A DNA stretch of 46,713 bases, taken from the sequence record PZ379183.1; one strand, written 5' to 3'. This document shows positions 4,227-37,337 of the stretch, piece after piece (position 1 is the first letter of the stretch; each line of letters begins with the position of its first letter). This stretch comes from a phage. Below the pieces are notes generated by a model, which saw nothing but the letters and a program-made list of their open reading frames with translations, had not been told where the DNA came from and did no database searches. Both the position numbers and the translations under genes were made by a program.

Positions 4227-4299
4227 GTTCTGCTGGCGTAACAGGATAACGCAAAGACCTCCTAAGTCTTAGTTACTGGTTCGAGTCCAGTGCGGAACA
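4227..4299 (+). tRNA. tRNA-Arg (anticodon CCU)
   Basis: Manual cloverleaf fold: 7-bp acceptor stem GTTCTGC/GCGGAAC (one G-U), U8, D-stem GCGT/ACGC with GG in D-loop, anticodon stem AAGAC/GTCTT, loop CUCCUAA (U33, anticodon CCU, A37), T-arm ACTGG-TTCGAGT-CCAGT, discriminator A followed by encoded CCA. Confidence 0.85.
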
Positions 4300-4333
4300 C
4301 CAAATTAAGAAACCAATAATCCTGGGGGATTAA

Positions 4334-4839: not shown

Positions 4840-5364
4840 ATGAAAGACGAAAACTTCACCAGTCAGGCGCAAGAAAAGGTCCGCTCTGGCAACTTTAAAG
4901 CCATGTACAATAAAAAGTACTCAGACATTACAACGCTAGCCAAAAACCGAAGCATGACACCCGAACAGCTATTTGAATTCGCCGTGAAATACTTCTCATG
5001 GGCTGAGAACCAGGCAATCAAGGCAATCGAGACAGCCAGCTTCCAGGGTGTGGTAAAAGAGAGCCTGGTGCACAAACCACGAGTCTTCACGCTAACCGGA
5101 TTCTGCCTTTACTGCGGTGTCACCCATAGCGCCATCGAGAAATGGAGGAAGTCGGCTGGTTATGATGAGGTGATTGCGTTCATTGATTCCGTGATTCGCG
5201 AGCAGAAATACCAGCTTGCAGCATCTGGCATCATTAACCCTGGCATGATTTCCAAAGAGCTTGGAATCGACAAGCCGCAGGAGATTACCATCAGCAACAA
5301 CTCTTCAGCTAACGACGTCGATACGATGAAGGAAGCGCTGGAGTCTGTGATTAGTAAGCTGTAA
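4840..5364 (+). CDS. terminase small subunit (putative)
   Basis: AAGGAGG RBS; 174-aa ORF immediately upstream of the large terminase gene; assignment by position. Confidence 0.5.
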   Translation: MKDENFTSQAQEKVRSGNFKAMYNKKYSDITTLAKNRSMTPEQLFEFAVKYFSWAENQAIKAIETASFQGVVKESLVHKPRVFTLTGFCLYCGVTHSAIEKWRKSAGYDEVIAFIDSVIREQKYQLAASGIINPGMISKELGIDKPQEITISNNSSANDVDTMKEALESVISKL

Positions 5365-5380
5365 TAGTTTGGAGAGTAGG

Positions 5381-12186: not shown

Positions 12187-12193
12187 TAAATCG

Positions 12194-12215
12194 CCCTCTA
12201 CGGAGGGTTTTTTTT
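12194..12215 (+). terminator. rho-independent terminator
   Basis: CCCTC-TACG-GAGGG hairpin followed by T8. Confidence 0.8.
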
Positions 12216-12279
12216 CGCCTGTACCAAAATGATATGATGGGTTATAATCAACCATCAATTAATAAAAGGAGAGCAATAA

Positions 12280-12525
12280 ATGATTCGTTTAGAACACACT
12301 GGCGCGTGCATGATTACCTTTCGTGGAGTGAATTACATGCCAGGTGAATTCATTGAGGTTGAGGAAATCAACGCTGGACTTAAAAGCCTCATTGCAGAAG
12401 GTCGCTTGCAGGTTGATGGAGACGCGAAGGCAACCAAAGAGATTATCGCAGAGGTTAAATCAAAATCTAAGCGCAAAGAACCGAAGACCATTGACGAAGC
12501 TCAGACTGGTCAGGAATATAAATAA
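12280..12525 (+). CDS. hypothetical protein (81 aa)
   Basis: AAAGGAGAGCAATAAATG RBS; bracketed by terminators on both sides. Confidence 0.45.
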   Translation: MIRLEHTGACMITFRGVNYMPGEFIEVEEINAGLKSLIAEGRLQVDGDAKATKEIIAEVKSKSKRKEPKTIDEAQTGQEYK

Positions 12526-13330: not shown

Positions 13331-13760
13331 AAATATTGGTGGGTTGGCTACATTTACGAATAGTATTGCTGATTGGATTGATAGAGCTGATGATAACTTC
13401 TCTGATATTGTTTCTGGCACTGTAATTAAGGCTGCTAACGCCATCGTTGATTTATCGCCTGTTGATACTGGTAGGTTTAAGGCTAACTGGCAGATTACAG
13501 CGAACTCCCCAGCCGCTCAGTCTCTGAATGATTACGACAAAACAGGTGGAGATACAAAAAGGTATCTGGCAAGGCAAGCTCGAGCTGTGGCTAATTCACC
13601 AGCGACAAAGGTTATCTACATAACTAACAGGCTTGATTACGCCTCTGACCTTGAGTATGGAGCGTCACGACAAGCTCCAGCAGGTGTCCTTGGCGTTGTG
13701 AATATCAGGTTAGGAAGATACTTCGAAGAGGCAGTTGCCGAAGCAAGGAGTAAAAGATAA
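13323..13760 (+). CDS. neck / tail completion protein (putative)
   Basis: ATG after AAGGAGGG RBS; position. Confidence 0.4.
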   Translation: MARNIGGLATFTNSIADWIDRADDNFSDIVSGTVIKAANAIVDLSPVDTGRFKANWQITANSPAAQSLNDYDKTGGDTKRYLARQARAVANSPATKVIYITNRLDYASDLEYGASRQAPAGVLGVVNIRLGRYFEEAVAEARSKR

Positions 13761-14158
13761 TGCAGTATGAGCTATCCTTAGCAGCAAGGAGGTTTGTGAC
13801 TGATTTGGTTGAAACGTTTCCAGTCAGGTATCCAATTTCCTATGAAAACGTAGCCTTCTCTCCTCCCAATAATGGTGGTATGTGGCTGAAATACGATTAC
13901 ACAGAGGCAGATACCGTAACCTACAGCCTGAGTCGCAAGTGTAAGTACTATGTTGGCATGGTTCAGGTATCCGTCTTTTTCTCACCAGGTGATGGTGTCG
14001 ACAGTGCAAGGAGATTAGCGAATCAATTGGCAGAATCAATGCTTGATGGTACAATGCTTGACACAGGCTACATTTATAAGGGCGGAGTAGTTCACCCAGT
14101 CGTGAAGTCAAAATCTGGCTGGTTTATTCCAGTTCGTTTCTATGTTCGTCTTGACTAA
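13760..14158 (+). CDS. tail terminator / tail-to-head joining protein (putative)
   Basis: AAGGAG RBS; position immediately before major tail region. Confidence 0.4.
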   Translation: MQYELSLAARRFVTDLVETFPVRYPISYENVAFSPPNNGGMWLKYDYTEADTVTYSLSRKCKYYVGMVQVSVFFSPGDGVDSARRLANQLAESMLDGTMLDTGYIYKGGVVHPVVKSKSGWFIPVRFYVRLD

Positions 14159-14168
14159 AAGGTTGCAA

Positions 14169-14651
14169 ATGAAAGAGTTCTTGAATTCTCTTTACGATTA
14201 TCGTGATGGTCAAATCTTTAAAAAAGGAAAAGGCAATCCTGCTGGTTATGGTTCTAGTAACGGATACGTAAAGACTTACGTATCAAAGACTGGTAAGATG
14301 TATATCCACAGGATTGTTTGGACGATGCATAATGGAGATATTCCTGAAGGCATGCAAATTGATCACTTAAACGGAAATCGAAGTGATAATCGCATTGAGA
14401 ATTTAAGGTGTGTTACTGCAACTGAAAATAGAAGGAATCAAGGCACTAGAAAACGTTCATTCCCAGGCGTTAATGGTGTAAACTACAATAATCGTGATAA
14501 CCTTTGGCATGCGATGATATCAGATAATGGCAAGAAAATTAGTCTTGGTCACTATAAGAGTTTCATATCCGCATGCGAAGCAAGAATTGTTGCTGAGGTA
14601 TCACTTGGTTATCACATAAATCACGCAAGCCGAGAAAGGCACGTATCTTAA
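14169..14651 (+). CDS. HNH homing endonuclease
   Basis: YIHRIVW...IDHLNGNRSDNRIENLR signature; paralogous to ORF 33821..34300; inserted inside the tail gene block. Confidence 0.75.
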   Translation: MKEFLNSLYDYRDGQIFKKGKGNPAGYGSSNGYVKTYVSKTGKMYIHRIVWTMHNGDIPEGMQIDHLNGNRSDNRIENLRCVTATENRRNQGTRKRSFPGVNGVNYNNRDNLWHAMISDNGKKISLGHYKSFISACEARIVAEVSLGYHINHASRERHVS

Positions 14652-14655
14652 GTCA

Positions 14656-15333
14656 TTGATTTGGAGGTGTATTATTGCTCATTTATCAAACGGCACTCAG
14701 GTCTTCGTAGAAGGCACTAGGGGAGCTGCTATCGACGTAACTGCAATTTCCAATGCTGTTACTCCTGTTTTAACTTTGTCCAGCGTTGCCGATATTGCAC
14801 GCGGTGATTACCTGCTATTTACCAGCTCAGCTTCGACCCTGCTGGCTGATAAGCAAGTTCGCGTTACCGAGGTATCTGGTTCAACCGTAACTGTTGAAGG
14901 TATTGATACCTCCAACACCACTAAGTTACCAGCTGGCTTAACTGGTGAAGTTGTTAAGATTCTTACTTGGTTTGAAGTTCCTTGTGTTCAGGACGTATCC
15001 ACTGATGGCGGCGAACAGCAGTTCGTTAACTTCCAGTGTTTATCTGATGATCGTGAGCAGCAGATTCCAACTTATAAGTCTGCGGTAACCAACACCTACA
15101 CGTTTGCGCACGAATACACCAACCCGGTATATCCGATTCTGCGTAACTATGACGAAGCTGGTACTGTTGTTGCTATTCGTCTGTTCGTACCTCGAGCTAG
15201 CGAGATGCGTCTCCAGTCTGGCACTATCGCTTTCAACGACACCCCAAGCATTGGTGTTAACGAAATCGAAACGGTATCCATCGCGGTATCTATCCGTGGT
15301 AGGTTGAGTTCTGTAGCTTCTGAACTGTCATAA
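14656..15333 (+). CDS. major tail protein (putative)
   Basis: 225-aa Thr/Val/Ser-rich ORF followed by strong terminator and preceding chaperone genes; start codon uncertain (TTG at 14656 or in-frame ATT after GGAGGTG). Confidence 0.55.
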   Translation: MIWRCIIAHLSNGTQVFVEGTRGAAIDVTAISNAVTPVLTLSSVADIARGDYLLFTSSASTLLADKQVRVTEVSGSTVTVEGIDTSNTTKLPAGLTGEVVKILTWFEVPCVQDVSTDGGEQQFVNFQCLSDDREQQIPTYKSAVTNTYTFAHEYTNPVYPILRNYDEAGTVVAIRLFVPRASEMRLQSGTIAFNDTPSIGVNEIETVSIAVSIRGRLSSVASELS

Positions 15334-15340
15334 ATATAAA

Positions 15341-15360
15341 CCCTCTTCGGAGGGTTTTTT
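15341..15360 (+). terminator. rho-independent terminator
   Basis: CCCTC-TTCG-GAGGG hairpin followed by T6. Confidence 0.8.
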
Positions 15361-28081: not shown

Positions 28082-29053
28082 ATGACATTTAAAGTTTATA
28101 CGAACGACGAGCTAACAAATGAATCCTATCACGAAGAGCAAGACCATATCTCTGGCTCTTCACTGGCTGAGATTCTTGCTACCTCACCAGCTAAATGGAA
28201 GTTTAAGCAGCGCAATAACTCTAGCGCAGCACTTAAATTTGGCACACTAAGTCACTGCATGATGCTAGAGCGCGAGGTATTTGACTCAACATACATGCGA
28301 GCTACTGACTTTGACGAAGTGGAAGGATTGATTACTAGCCAAACGGCTTTATCCGCAGCGCTTAAAAAAGTTGGAGTTTCAGGCACGTCAGGGAAGGGAT
28401 ATAGCGAGCTCGTGGAGATGATGTATAAATCTGGTGAGGATTGGCCTGTTAAATGGTTAATTGAGCAGCAGGAGAGCGCTGAGGCGTTAATTAGTGGCAA
28501 AGAGCTCGTTACTGCGAAAGATTACGATAAGGTAATCTCAATGCGCGAGGTTCTTACTAATATCCCAGCTTACGATGCGATTATTAACTCACCAACAGCA
28601 CAGAAAGAGCTATCAATCTTTGGTGAGATTCTTGGGTGTGGTGTTAAGGTTAGGCTTGATCACGTGGATGTTGTTGATGGCGTGGTTTTCATTACTGACT
28701 ACAAGACGACGGCGGACGCAAGCCCGAGAGGATTTGGCAAGTCAGCTTATGACCATGGATACCTGTGCAAAATGAGCCTTCAGCGTGACTTGTTCGTGAA
28801 GGCATTTAACGAGAAGCGTAAGGTTGTGGTTCGACTTCTGGCGCAGGAAAAAACGGAGCCTTACTTACCAATGAGCTACACGCTTACAGATGAACAGCTT
28901 CGCATTGGTCGTTTACAATATTGTGAGGCACTAGCAACATACAAACAGTGCAAGGAGCTTGATGTATGGCCTGGGTATAGCAATGGGATTACAGAGCAAG
29001 ATTTGATGATTCCTGAGTGGGTAAGTAAGCAGTATCAAGAACTTCTAAAATAG
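28082..29053 (+). CDS. PD-(D/E)XK exonuclease (YqaJ/RecE/lambda Exo-like)
   Basis: VRLDHVDVVDGVVFITDYKT region resembles the Asp...Asp/Glu-x-Lys nuclease core; adjacent to the annealing protein gene. Confidence 0.6.
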   Translation: MTFKVYTNDELTNESYHEEQDHISGSSLAEILATSPAKWKFKQRNNSSAALKFGTLSHCMMLEREVFDSTYMRATDFDEVEGLITSQTALSAALKKVGVSGTSGKGYSELVEMMYKSGEDWPVKWLIEQQESAEALISGKELVTAKDYDKVISMREVLTNIPAYDAIINSPTAQKELSIFGEILGCGVKVRLDHVDVVDGVVFITDYKTTADASPRGFGKSAYDHGYLCKMSLQRDLFVKAFNEKRKVVVRLLAQEKTEPYLPMSYTLTDEQLRIGRLQYCEALATYKQCKELDVWPGYSNGITEQDLMIPEWVSKQYQELLK

Positions 29054-29123: not shown

Positions 29124-29774
29124 ATGAAAACTTCAGATCAAAACAAGCAAGTATTGAAGGCTTTATTTGAGGCCAAATCAAAGTTTGCAAAGGCTGAAAA
29201 GTCAAAGCAGAACTCGCACCTAAAGAACAGGTACGCCACCCTGGAAGACGTACTGGCGGCTGTAGAGCCTGGCCTTGCAGATAGCGGCCTGGTCATGTTT
29301 CAAGGCATGATTGATGATGAAGCCACAACTAGAATTAAGGTTGAAACAACTGTCTATCATGCAGAATCTGGAGAGTGGGTCAGCTTCCTGACAATCGTCC
29401 CAATCAGCAAGCAAGATGCTCAAGGTTACGGCTCATCACTTACATATGCTCGCCGTTATGCAATTACAGCGGCATTAGGATTGAGCCAGGCAGATGATGA
29501 TGGTCAGCTTGCAGTTAAGGGTATCAACTCATTTAAGAAAGATTTAGCTAAGTGCAACACTCTTGATGACCTGCGTGATGTATACAAAGAAGCCAAGCAG
29601 TCTCTTGATTCAGCTGGTTGGCTGGTGATTGAACCTCACATCATTGAGCGTAAGGCAGAAATTCAGGCTAATGCAACTAACGGCTTCAATCCTGCAAAAC
29701 CTAAACAGGTTGCACAAAAGTCTGTTCAAGAAGAAAAAGTTGAAGTACAATCTCAAGAAATCGACACATTCTAA
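29124..29774 (+). CDS. Erf-like single-strand annealing protein
   Basis: SSLTYARRYAITAALGL segment typical of ERF-superfamily annealing proteins; position between exonuclease and SSB. Confidence 0.7.
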   Translation: MKTSDQNKQVLKALFEAKSKFAKAEKSKQNSHLKNRYATLEDVLAAVEPGLADSGLVMFQGMIDDEATTRIKVETTVYHAESGEWVSFLTIVPISKQDAQGYGSSLTYARRYAITAALGLSQADDDGQLAVKGINSFKKDLAKCNTLDDLRDVYKEAKQSLDSAGWLVIEPHIIERKAEIQANATNGFNPAKPKQVAQKSVQEEKVEVQSQEIDTF

Positions 29775-32900: not shown

Positions 32901-33824
32901 TTAGTTTAGCAAGTCGTTTGCTTTGTACACTTTCTTTCGTATGCCTGTTTTAAATGACTCACCGTCATTAGGAACTACAACATCAACACCCCTATCGTCA
33001 GCAACAGCGAGTATATCGCTATCAGAATCACGGCAAGCAATTCTGAACTTCCTTGACTTGTCGCGGTGGATAACCATCTCCATATTGTAACAGGAGAAAG
33101 CAACAAACACTTCGCGCCCACCAGTAGCAAGGTGAACACGTATGCCATCAATATAATTGTCAACAACATAAGTATAACTATCATCCAGCTTAGAACCAAT
33201 AACGGAAACAGAATCACGAGTGTAATCACCAGCAAGGAACTTAACATTTGAATCCTCATCAATAAACATTACGTTACAGAACTCATCACTAAGCCCATCT
33301 TCATAAACCATCGAACAAGGGATTGCGTGAATCATTGAACAATTTTTAGCTATACCAACATCAAAACCAAACTCGTCATAAATACCCTCGTATGTCGTGA
33401 GTGGACTAGATTCAACTCGCTGAGTCCTCTCCATGACCTCAAGAACTTTCTTGTGGTCTACTTGAGCGCAAATTTTATAACGCTGCGTTCTTGATGCTTG
33501 CTTGTTTGCTTTAACTATAACCTCAATTGGTATTAAGTTCAGCCAGTCACCAAGCAAATTTACTGAATCAGCGAAGGACAATCCAGTGCACTTCATGACC
33601 CATCCTATACCGGAGTCACTTCCGCATTTCGAACAAACTGCCGCGCCATTTCCTTTTTCACTGCCTATTTCGTCGGTAAATCTGAATCTGTCAGTGCCAA
33701 AGCAGTATGGGCATGGTCCGTGCTTCTTACTTAGGTGTCTATCATTCCAACCAAGTTCCTTTGCATAAAATGATTTCCACAATCCGGCCATCTTAGGTAT
33801 AACTTCATTCTTATCGTAATTCAT
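32901..33824 (-). CDS. DNA primase (zinc-finger primase, putative)
   Basis: N-terminal zinc ribbon C-P-Y-C...C-S-K-C followed by acidic catalytic-like region; upstream of helicase in the replication block. Confidence 0.65.
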   Translation of the reverse strand: MNYDKNEVIPKMAGLWKSFYAKELGWNDRHLSKKHGPCPYCFGTDRFRFTDEIGSEKGNGAAVCSKCGSDSGIGWVMKCTGLSFADSVNLLGDWLNLIPIEVIVKANKQASRTQRYKICAQVDHKKVLEVMERTQRVESSPLTTYEGIYDEFGFDVGIAKNCSMIHAIPCSMVYEDGLSDEFCNVMFIDEDSNVKFLAGDYTRDSVSVIGSKLDDSYTYVVDNYIDGIRVHLATGGREVFVAFSCYNMEMVIHRDKSRKFRIACRDSDSDILAVADDRGVDVVVPNDGESFKTGIRKKVYKANDLLN

Positions 33825-34300
33825 TTGCTTAACCCGTGATTTTCGTGAAAGTTGTATTTTCCCTCTGCTTCAATTCTTACTTTATACGCCCGCTCTGGAG
33901 TATCGAAGTTCCCAAGGTGTAGCTGCTTGCCGTCAACCTTGATGTGAGCCTTAAATTTTCCGTGATTTAGCTTTGCCACTCCACAATAACCAGTTGTTGA
34001 TAAAACGCTAAGCTTGCAATTTCTTGAGTTACCTTGATTTGTTGTTACTCTTAGGTTTTCTATTCTGTTATCTAATTTGTTATGGTTTATATGATCAATG
34101 TAGTCGCCATTTTGAAGTTCTCCATTAAACATCTCCCACACAACTCTATGTACATAAGTCCTAAAGCCATTAACAGACACTTTGTAATAGCCAGATGTAG
34201 ATAGTGAGTTGCACTCATCGCCAACCTTAACACGTCTTGCAGTGCTAATCTTCCAATGCAATTTGCCATCTACATAGTAAAAATAATCATGCCAGTTCAT
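33821..34300 (-). CDS. HNH homing endonuclease
   Basis: YVHRVVW...IDHINHNKLDNRIENLR signature; paralogue of 14169..14651. Confidence 0.75.
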   Translation of the reverse strand: MNWHDYFYYVDGKLHWKISTARRVKVGDECNSLSTSGYYKVSVNGFRTYVHRVVWEMFNGELQNGDYIDHINHNKLDNRIENLRVTTNQGNSRNCKLSVLSTTGYCGVAKLNHGKFKAHIKVDGKQLHLGNFDTPERAYKVRIEAEGKYNFHENHGLSK

Positions 34301-34351
34301 TTTCTTCTCTCCAATAAAAAAGGATGTACCGATTATGGCACATCCAATTAT

Positions 34352-34921: not shown

Positions 34922-36916
34922 ATGCTTCCAGTAGAGCGCTTAGTAGCCAACTTCGATCAAGAGAAGATTAAGCAGATTCAGAGAGATTACCAGTTTGGAG
35001 AAATCACTCCTTACCCATTCCAGTGTGTGACATTTGATGCAATTGGGAAGGCTATTGGAAAGTACGAGGCCCCATTCATCGCAGACCTGTCTGTATCTGC
35101 TGGTAAGACAATTATTCTTGCCATGATTGGAAAGCGCATGGAACAGCTTGGGCTTCCTTACATGGTGCTTTCTCGCCAGTCAGAAATTATCAGCCAGAAC
35201 GCTGAAGAGCTTCGTAACTTCGGCATCCGTAATAGCGTCTATTGCGCTGGCCTTAACGTTAAATCAGTTTACTACCCAACCATAGTGGCTAGTGAGGGCA
35301 CGGCTGCTAACGGCTTGTTTAAGGGCCTTGGTGACTATGTTCCTGCCGTTATTGCGATAGATGAATGTCATATGGTTGACCATATGGATATCGTAGAAGC
35401 TGAAGAGAACGAGGAAACATTCGAGCAGATGAGCACGAAGAAGGGTGAGATGGTTTTCAAGGATGGAGTGAATACCGGATTGCTCGGAACTGGTCGTGCG
35501 CAGTACACGCTAATCATTACTGAGATGAAGAGACGCTGCAAAGAGAAGTATGGTCGCGAACTACGCATCTTCGGTTTGACTGGCAGCCCGTACCGTAACA
35601 ACGACCACATTGTAGTTAGTAACCCAAATGTCCGTGGATTCTGGCGCAAAACTGTAATGCAAGTGCCAACCAGCTACCTTGTTGACTTGGGGTTCGTTGT
35701 TCCTACTGTCTACGGTGAAGTTGGTGATTTGGGCTACGACCTTAGTGAGTTCACTCCTGATGGAAGTGATGGGGTTAAGGACTTCAGCAAGAAAGAAATG
35801 GATGCGATGGCTGCAAAGATTCACGAAAACCAAACGATGACACAAAAGATAATGGGATTTGCTGCTAAGTTTATGGAAACAAGGAATGCTGCATTGGTAA
35901 CTTGCGCTGGCAAACAGCATTGCGAGGAGGCGGCAGCCGCACTTCCAGAAGGTGTTACTTGGGCGATAGTTACCAACTCCACTGGTGAGAAGAAGCGTAG
36001 AGAGATACTTGAGAAGGCAGCCAACGGAGAATATAAGTTCATATTTCAGATTGGTTGCCTCACAACTGGCGTAAACTGCCCCCCGTGGGATACAAGCATT
36101 ATCCTGAGGAAGGTTGGTAGCATTACTCTACTCATTCAGTTGCTTGGTCGTGGTATGCGTATCCTTAAGAAGAAGCACAAAGAAGCTGGAATGGTAAAAG
36201 ATGACCATGTTGTTCTTGATTTTGCTGGAACGCTTGATGATATGGCTGAACTTTACTTCGACCCAATTATAGAAGAGGTACAAGACCAGAAATTTAGGTC
36301 AGCAAGAAAGCGTGGTGATAAGCCAAGAATCTGTCCGGCATGCTCTTATGTGAACTCTCAATTAGCCAGGCGCTGCAATAACGTAATTGACTGGAAGCGC
36401 TGTGAGCACTTCTTTCAGTTTAGACTGTGTGAAGATATAGCGGACCCACAGACCAAAGCTATCATTAAGAAAGGATGCGGTGAGAAGAATGATATTGCAG
36501 CTAAGAATTGCAGATGCTGTGGTGAGATGCTCATAGACCCGAATGCTAAGTTATCAGGAAAAATGTATCGTAAGGGGGACTGGTTGCGAGTTTATGACTT
36601 CAAGATTGGGTTAACAAAGAACCAGTCAGGGATCGTTGCTTCATATGAGGTAATGGCTCATAGTGGAGATAAGTTCCGAGCTTATGAAACATTCTTCCCG
36701 GAGTCAGACCATCGTGTTTGTTCTGTCAAATGGAAGGCGTTTTGCTCAACTCACATCGAGAACAGGACTGAGGCTTTTAGGATTGGCAGATTGCGTAATG
36801 CTAAAATGATTATGACAAATGCACATCTTTTCCGTGCGCCGCTAAGGATTACGCACCGCAAGAATCAGAAGTCGCAAGATATTATCGCCAACAAATCATT
36901 TACGATGGAGGATTGA
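34922..36916 (+). CDS. ATP-dependent DNA helicase (superfamily 2, DEAD/DEAH-like)
   Basis: Walker A-like SAGKT, DECH box (AIDECHMVD), later helicase-type motifs and a C-terminal Cys-rich zinc-finger region. Confidence 0.75.
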   Translation: MLPVERLVANFDQEKIKQIQRDYQFGEITPYPFQCVTFDAIGKAIGKYEAPFIADLSVSAGKTIILAMIGKRMEQLGLPYMVLSRQSEIISQNAEELRNFGIRNSVYCAGLNVKSVYYPTIVASEGTAANGLFKGLGDYVPAVIAIDECHMVDHMDIVEAEENEETFEQMSTKKGEMVFKDGVNTGLLGTGRAQYTLIITEMKRRCKEKYGRELRIFGLTGSPYRNNDHIVVSNPNVRGFWRKTVMQVPTSYLVDLGFVVPTVYGEVGDLGYDLSEFTPDGSDGVKDFSKKEMDAMAAKIHENQTMTQKIMGFAAKFMETRNAALVTCAGKQHCEEAAAALPEGVTWAIVTNSTGEKKRREILEKAANGEYKFIFQIGCLTTGVNCPPWDTSIILRKVGSITLLIQLLGRGMRILKKKHKEAGMVKDDHVVLDFAGTLDDMAELYFDPIIEEVQDQKFRSARKRGDKPRICPACSYVNSQLARRCNNVIDWKRCEHFFQFRLCEDIADPQTKAIIKKGCGEKNDIAAKNCRCCGEMLIDPNAKLSGKMYRKGDWLRVYDFKIGLTKNQSGIVASYEVMAHSGDKFRAYETFFPESDHRVCSVKWKAFCSTHIENRTEAFRIGRLRNAKMIMTNAHLFRAPLRITHRKNQKSQDIIANKSFTMED

Positions 36917-36917
36917 T

Positions 36918-37337
36918 ATGAAAATCACAGACAAAGGTGATTACCTCGAGTTCTATGGCGGACCGGTGAAGTCATGCCCAAAGGAAGACGATGAACAAAT
37001 CTTCTGCTCTGATTGGGTGAAATACAACTATCCGCAGATTGTTTACTGGCACACGATTAACGAAAATAAAAAGAGCATTGGTCAAGCAAGAAAAGACCAA
37101 GCCAAGGGGCTTCTCAAAGGTGTGTCAGACTGCTTATTTCTGATACCTGAGTCATTGCGTGGCGGTTATCCATTTGGCGCCATAGAGTTAAAGAGGGCTG
37201 GTAAAACGCAAGCAAGCCCAGTTAGCAATGAGCAAAAGTCATTCCTAAAAAGCGTAAGGGAATCAGGCGGTTTCGCAGCGGTGGCTTATGGAAGAGAGGG
37301 TTTTCTTGCGGCATTCGCAGAGATGATAAGAAAATAG
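36918..37337 (+). CDS. VRR-NUC-type nuclease (putative)
   Basis: Small PD-(D/E)XK-like core with D...E-L-K (GAIELKRAG); translationally coupled to helicase (stop/start overlap). Confidence 0.5.
   Translation: MKITDKGDYLEFYGGPVKSCPKEDDEQIFCSDWVKYNYPQIVYWHTINENKKSIGQARKDQAKGLLKGVSDCLFLIPESLRGGYPFGAIELKRAGKTQASPVSNEQKSFLKSVRESGGFAAVAYGREGFLAAFAEMIRK

Follow-up and report, generated by a model that had tools for sequence, protein, structure and literature searches.

What are three small HNH endonuclease genes doing in one phage genome, one of them wedged into the tail gene block and another set against the primase, and did they arrive as elements that spread between related phages? We addressed this question in the full 46,713 nt of sequence record PZ379183.1 (hereafter the window), for which an earlier note, made from the letters alone, had listed three HNH open-reading frames and likened their placement to that of homing endonucleases. 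All three open-reading frames are present:

2337-2759, + strand: HNH3, a small zinc-finger HNH gene in the early region (PHROG 2118; CxxC...DH...N...CxxCN)
14169-14651, + strand: HNH1, an HNH_3 nuclease with a predicted C-terminal AP2-like domain (Pfam HNH_3, PHROG 99)
33821-34300, - strand: HNH2, an HNH_3 nuclease and paralogue of HNH1 (Pfam HNH_3, PHROG 99)

On the comparisons set out below, these are likely free-standing homing endonuclease genes in a T1-like coliphage of the Braunvirinae. Megablast of three parts of the window found its nearest relatives among Escherichia phages of the Drexlerviridae, subfamily Braunvirinae (IMM-001, ES, AN_ECEAS, Rao1, TR1-3, phiA2-1, IME542 and DTL), and by this similarity the window is itself a T1-like coliphage of that subfamily. 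The same searches returned no GenBank phage matching the window end to end; identity to the relatives swings between ~60% and ~100% along the genome, and a 6 kb Logan contig (SRR8925731) is ~100% identical over the tail region. One short stretch of the window recurs in hundreds of Escherichia and Klebsiella phages with at least 95% identity, and this may be the tRNA-Arg gene (anticodon CCT) found in the early region at 4227-4302. The GC content is 44.0% for the genome, 37.7% for HNH1, 38.1% for HNH2 and 46.8%, which is genome-typical, for HNH3. A local phmmer search of all six-frame open-reading frames found no further homologue of HNH1, HNH2 or HNH3 in the window, which rules out a fourth nuclease gene of the same type there, and Pfam scans of ten other mid-sized open-reading frames detected a VRR-NUC protein and no more homing-type nucleases. 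The VRR-NUC domain nuclease gene (36918-37337) comes directly after the helicase gene and its product is probably a resolvase-type enzyme, separate from the three HNH genes.

HNH1 and HNH2 both match Pfam HNH_3 (PF13392) far above its 24.8-bit cut-off (84 bits, E=4.6e-24, and 65 bits, E=3.8e-18, respectively) and, over their full length, PHROG 99 'HNH endonuclease' (6e-51 and 1e-56). Judged by their alignment (39% amino acid identity over 132 aa, E=1e-23) they are distant paralogues, which upholds the paralogy proposed for them; the 'nearly identical core' with which they had been credited holds for the quoted motifs, which are exact or near matches (YIHRIVW/YVHRVVW, IDHLN/IDHIN and DNRIENLR), but not for the whole proteins at that level of identity. 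Seven residues (H47, D65, H66, N74, N78, N87 and N90) are invariant in 49 aligned homologues, HNH2 among them, and the proteins are full-length in all copies found, with catalytic residues unchanged. In a sequence search the sole significant solved relative of HNH1 was I-HmuI (1u3e, E=1.3e-4), the alignment spanning the catalytic motif. We take D65/H66 and N87 of HNH1 to correspond in their roles to the Asp-His and the metal-binding Asn of I-HmuI. A ββα-metal HNH core is characterised by an Asp-His pair, a structural Asn and a metal-binding Asn, all of which can be recognised in the sequences of both HNH1 and HNH2.

In the AlphaFold model of HNH1 (mean pLDDT 91) a β-rich N-terminal part precedes the HNH core, and residues 104-146 form a three-strand sheet with a helix. 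Foldseek on this model ranked I-HmuI first, followed by AP2 domains (WRINKLED1, PfAP2, TEM1); the AP2 structures matched by the C-terminal fold were 1gcc, 7wq5, 3igm and 7et4, and superposition on AtERF1 (1gcc) gave an rmsd of 1.5 Å over 51 columns. This layout, an HNH core with AP2 fold matches behind it, implies an HNH+AP2 architecture, in which the C-terminal module of HNH1 is, according to the model, a separate AP2-like DNA-binding domain. The AP2 match of HNH1 in Pfam was sub-threshold (E=0.002) and the Pfam scan of HNH2 gave no AP2 match; a similar module in HNH2 is suggested by homology, as its C-terminus aligns with that of HNH1. We rejected a longer HNH1 open-reading frame from 14142, which overlaps the upstream gene; the homologues and the gene calls of the near-identical contig start at the ATG at 14169.

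The zinc-finger-type signature previously ascribed to HNH3 is likewise there, in the form CxxC...DH...N...CxxCN. The protein matches PHROG 2118 'HNH endonuclease' (7e-55) and scores 21.3 bits against Pfam HNH (PF01844), for which the cut-off is 21.4. A separate DNA-binding domain is not recognisable in it, and a PDB sequence search returned nothing significant (best-noted 4h9d, E=0.44). Around the three genes, promoter-like sites were no commoner than in shuffled sequence, so we make no case for promoters of their own, and in the promoter/terminator scan of the same regions the only meaningful-looking hairpins were at 34322-34345 and 15338-15357.

HNH1 lies in the tail block, at what we refer to as site 1, and its surroundings are as follows:

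13760-14158, + strand: tail terminator gene, 5' neighbour of HNH1 (PF13554, E=6e-19; homologues annotated tail terminator)
14163-14673, no strand assigned: HNH1 cassette with its 3' untranslated tail, in place of the spacer 'AAAATAT' that empty alleles of the ATG type have there
14674-15333, + strand: tail tube (major tail) gene, 3' neighbour of HNH1 (PF08813, E=5e-66)

The upstream PF13554 and downstream PF08813 matches bear out the position given for HNH1 between tail terminator and major tail genes. Site 1 is without HNH1 in IMM-001, Rao1, IME542, EC3a, Rtp and others, and junction alignments with the first three of these defined the cassette edges at 14163-14673. In these three empty alleles the sequence after the tail terminator stop reads ...GACTAAAAGGAAAATAT-ATG, the ATG being the tail tube start; in the window HNH1 starts 6 nt after the same AAAGG (14158-14162), which implies that HNH1 has taken over the ribosome-binding site of the upstream gene.

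Homologues of HNH1 with 71–99% amino acid identity were found in RobRod40, in phiEB49 (Rogunavirinae) and in five Logan/ENA contigs, and every HNH1-family locus found, in two subfamilies, sits between PF13554 and PF08813 genes. As all of them share these two neighbours, the family is strictly site-specific. A search of IMG/VR with the HNH1 protein returned distant relatives only (35–49% identity), which were uninformative on the site. The window HNH1 allele shares ~73% nucleotide identity with the GenBank copies, its sole near-identical copy being in an unannotated Logan contig, and by this comparison it is new relative to GenBank phages. In a metagenomic phage (L034/L035) each flank matches the window at 95–100% identity over more than 1 kb, with only 61–88% identity within 14220-14690; a divergent HNH1 between constant flanks implies that nuclease alleles have been exchanged at an occupied site. 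Comparison of the HNH1 homologues and their flanks revealed no co-conversion tract at site 1: the nearest homologues show about the same divergence from the window as their flanks, or a greater one, and therefore give no co-conversion signal there.

At site 2 a different pattern emerged around HNH2 and the primase gene:

32901-33824, - strand: DNA primase, chimeric (PF08273 zinc ribbon at aa 33-73; sliding identity profiles)
33487-~34350, no strand assigned: near-identical 863-bp block of HNH2, the primase 5' 338 bp and ~50 bp upstream
34322-34345, - strand: terminator-like hairpin, flanked by the upstream regulator gene and by HNH2 (terminator annotation in CEB_EC3a)

HNH2 does abut the primase, as had been described, its stop overlapping the ATG of the PF08273 gene as ATGA. 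Seven GenBank phages (DTL, CEB_EC3a, RobRod40, IME542, TR1, phiA2-1 and AugustePiccard) carry HNH2 at 98.8–99.4% nucleotide identity, always just upstream of the primase, and on this alignment HNH2 is essentially a gene already in GenBank. Within the block 33487-~34350 each of the seven carriers differs from the window by 6–12 mismatches, five of which are private to the window, and outside it the mismatch positions and a 50-nt profile show about one mismatch per 3 nt, an identity of ~60–80% (~60–70% in the adjoining primase sequence). Besides the nuclease gene, the block includes the primase zinc ribbon and a short upstream spacer with part of the terminator-like hairpin; in the HNH-free AN_ECEAS the same hairpin stands immediately before the primase. 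A search with 33400-33820 gave a bimodal result, 93–96% identity in exactly the HNH2 carriers and at most 82% in all others, and HNH2 carriage goes without exception with a single primase 5' allele.

Site 2 is empty in Rao1, AN_ECEAS, 2725-N35 and Rogue1. The first three share 44–76% identity with the window over 33600-33824, and Rao1 is 76–100% identical to it in the remaining primase; the primase body resembles Rao1 and phiA2-1, and the 5' 338 bp belong to the HNH2 block. The HNH-free Rogue1 (L014, Rogunavirinae) shares 84–94% identity over 33600-33800 and far less elsewhere, from which the dragged primase segment may stem from a Rogue1-like lineage, and the comparison hints that the HNH2 block crossed between subfamilies. 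In its extent the block looks like a co-conversion tract, as expected for intronless homing. Its left edge is equal in 7/7 comparisons, and thus may mark only the window's own single acquisition.

HNH3 occupies a third site, where the alignment shows a single insertion:

2329-2761, no strand assigned: 433-bp insertion relative to Rao1, holding HNH3 (alignment with Rao1, AN_ECEAS and IMM-001)

The insertion is edged by TAAGG upstream and by TGAGG at its own end, which would restore a ribosome-binding site for the next gene. The site is empty in Rao1, a shorter HNH3 homologue occupies the same spot in IMM-001, and AN_ECEAS and ES carry a 99% identical copy within a long region of 96–100% identity. 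Protein homologues of HNH3 are spread over unrelated groups, including RB49-like myoviruses and Vibrio, Acinetobacter and Streptococcus phages. Judged by presence and absence alone, HNH3 is probably a mobile nuclease gene as well, with less support than HNH1 and HNH2; its genome-typical GC content, its Pfam score below the cut-off and the want of a recognisable DNA-binding domain count against it.

The earlier note had proposed looking for insert-free alleles in related phages and aligning the flanks with them; such alleles were found for all three genes, and the alignments (IMM-001, Rao1, IME542, AN_ECEAS) gave exact insertion boundaries. All three insertions are intergenic with clean junctions, and the genes on either side are uninterrupted and in the same order as in the empty-site relatives. 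An intron- or intein-encoded origin was rejected, as all three genes lie in intergenic spacers beside intact genes.

Relatives of the window carry HNH genes at further sites, one at the small/large terminase junction (Rao1 gp12, AN_ECEAS) and one between the major capsid and DUF7444 genes (Rao1 gp18, phiEB49 gp51, L033); the window is empty at both, at 5364-5369 and ~12190-12280, respectively. Insertion sites in the lineage thus number at least five or six, three of them filled here. In AN_ECEAS (L006, 2959-4451) the helicase gene is split just after an 'AIDEC' motif by a ~650 bp insert, which starts with CLTGDTMITT and encodes LAGLIDADG-like motifs and for these reasons resembles an intein that carries a homing endonuclease of its own. 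The helicase gene of the window (34922-36916) is unbroken, the intein-like insert being absent, and the two phages are 99–100% identical over 35600-36200, downstream of the point that matches the insert.

These genes are of a kind that is well known, and free-standing HNH genes are routinely annotated in Drexlerviridae. Annotated homologues of HNH2 at the same position are DTL gp54, IME542 gp02 and AugustePiccard bas01_0040, the last of these, from a BASEL phage, as a 'putative homing endonuclease'; RobRod40 CDS0014 and phiEB49 gp45 are also annotated homologues, and both of these phages carry HNH1 homologues at the same position. Our literature search found no characterised homing enzyme of T1-like phages. 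Among known systems, I-HmuI from the SPO1 DNA polymerase intron (PDB 1U3E) shares with HNH1 and HNH2 an HNH_3-type ββα-metal core with D-H...N...N residues, and with HNH1 an elongated form in which a β-rich N-terminal region is followed by the HNH core and then by a DNA-binding module. It differs from both in being group I intron-encoded with a C-terminal helix-turn-helix, whereas HNH1 and HNH2 are free-standing and have a predicted AP2-like sheet-plus-helix. I-HmuI nicks one strand. The Seg and Mob genes of T4 resemble those described here in lying between essential genes, in their presence and absence, and in the flanking donor DNA that goes with them (here 338 bp of primase at site 2), although Seg enzymes are of the GIY-YIG type and Mob enzymes come from a different HNH branch from that of HNH1 and HNH2. 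For Seg and Mob homing has been shown experimentally, whereas here we infer it.

Closer in architecture are the HNH+AP2 proteins, a recognised homing endonuclease family found in phages, cyanobacteria and protists, which includes IPA-HNH of Vibrio phage ICP1 and whose genes mark phage recombination boundaries (Barth, Dunham and Seed 2023, PMC10448857). As in the window, members of this family combine an N-terminal HNH with a C-terminal AP2 domain and are free-standing, beside essential genes and at sequence-exchange boundaries. The ICP1 IPA-HNH has no canonical Pfam HNH_3 match (PMC10448857), in contrast to the strong matches of HNH1 and HNH2, and the host phage lineages, ICP1 and Drexlerviridae, differ. 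Homing endonuclease infestation and gene conversion have been described for E. coli phages generally by the BASEL authors.

Comparative genomics supports a homing endonuclease reading through the empty sites, the site fidelity of HNH1 and the HNH2 block that is near-identical in otherwise divergent phages, and the placement of the genes is in this respect what the earlier note had taken it for. The exchange of HNH1 alleles seen with L034/L035 and the low GC content of HNH1 and HNH2 point the same way. At sites 1 and 2 the gene occurs sporadically but always in one position, and close relatives have empty alleles; a pattern consistent with co-conversion is seen for HNH2 and not for HNH1. Two recombination genes of the window could serve such a process:

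28082-29053, + strand: PDDEXK exonuclease (Pfam PF12684, 9e-22)
29124-29774, + strand: ERF-family annealing protein (Pfam PF04404, 1.5e-27)

In a mixed infection with a gene-free relative, the nuclease would bind an extended recognition sequence close to the vacant insertion point and then presumably nick or cut the DNA of the empty allele. The break would be repaired off the gene-bearing genome, possibly by the phage's own PDDEXK exonuclease and ERF annealing protein, and through the repair the recipient would receive a copy of the nuclease gene with some of the DNA beside it.

Could the same distribution arise with no part played by the nucleases? The three would then be accessory genes shuffled by ordinary homologous or illegitimate recombination, their nuclease irrelevant to the spread or decayed, and the missing co-conversion signal at site 1 would suit this, as would the mosaicism of the window, in which identity to any one relative jumps between ~60 and 100% at many points where there is no nuclease gene. 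Mosaicism of this ordinary sort could in principle yield both the presence/absence patterns and the identity blocks. We nevertheless regard such passive carriage as very improbable, because every copy found is complete and has the invariant catalytic residues, HNH1-family genes in two subfamilies occupy a single site, and the block at site 2 takes in the nuclease gene itself, whose carriage is perfectly linked to the primase 5' allele.

It is likewise highly unlikely that any of the nucleases has become domesticated for a phage function, whether as a terminase-assisting HNH (a role for which HNH3 is the most plausible candidate), a resolvase of the endonuclease VII kind, a weapon directed at competing phages or at satellites, or a regulator that binds DNA through AP2. 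Domesticated homing endonuclease derivatives do occur in ICP1 (PMC10448857), AP2-domain phage proteins with regulatory roles are known in the literature, and HNH3 has homologues in very different phage groups as well as weaker PHROG matches to 'endonuclease VII' families (1e-8, 4e-6). HNH1 and HNH2, however, are dispensable in close relatives and retain a complete nuclease active site. We rejected a terminase-associated HNH of the HK97 gp74 type for HNH3, since the gene is not beside the terminase or portal genes and is absent in Rao1 at the same spot: it ends at 2759, ~2.1 kb from the start of the small terminase gene at 4840, with the tRNA-Arg and several open-reading frames in between. The small terminase, moreover, matches Pfam GP3_package (PF16677). 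T1-like phages package by a headful mechanism for which an HNH helper is not needed, which also counts against a packaging role, and such a role is unlikely for HNH3.

The junction downstream of HNH1 has a further peculiarity, at the start of the tail tube gene:

14663-14676, + strand: GGAGG, TGTATT and ATT at the expected tail tube start, where empty-site relatives have ATG

The tail tube gene of the window has no AUG start; the ATT in its place is preceded by GGAGG, a strong ribosome-binding site, at a 6-nt spacing. This ATT is found in the window and in 8/8 further HNH1-bearing sequences (seven distinct lineages including the window), and an ATG stands at the tail tube start in at least ten HNH-free phages. 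Two phages that are HNH-free at site 1, DTL and MM01, also have the ATT allele, with a spacer homologous to the HNH1 cassette's 3' tail. With seven lineages, ten ATG empty-site phages and two HNH-free ATT phages, the association between ATT and HNH1 carriage gives a Fisher p = 0.0007, in a test that ignores relatedness. The start-codon tally includes the eight loci, all HNH-free, returned by an IMG/VR search with the tail tube protein. The exact ATT-junction pattern occurred in IMG/VR only in DTL and phiEB49, besides two unrelated chance matches, and had no matches in JGI metagenomes; a literature search found nothing on an ATT start in major tail proteins.

Across the ATT loci (window 14656-14676 with L004, L013, L023, L025 and L033-L038), an in-frame TTG lies six codons upstream (window 14656) in most. 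It is absent in phiEB49 and DTL, where no canonical start codon is available for the tail tube gene, and the GenBank records of these two phages call the gene truncated. The N-terminus AHLSNGTQVF is kept despite synonymous codon changes, and as codons 2-8 differ synonymously between alleles, translation must begin at or before the ATT. A functional tie between the HNH1 cassette and this unusual start of an essential gene seems rather unlikely to us. Were there one, the cassette might introduce, or depend on, AUU (or unaided UUG) as the initiation codon of a structural protein made in very large amounts, or tail tube synthesis might be coupled to HNH1 translation, in which case loss of the cassette would be costly. 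Alternatively the ATT allele might be a footprint of the nuclease or of cassette loss, an immunity mark, or the natural target of the nuclease.

For work on these phages, the tail tube gene is easily mis-called in genomes of the ATT type, and the primase gene, which the 863-bp block makes chimeric, should be left out of trees. Our main result is that a known process, the spread of free-standing homing endonuclease genes, likely shapes this phage, and natural donor and recipient pairs for homing tests in T1-like phages are now at hand.
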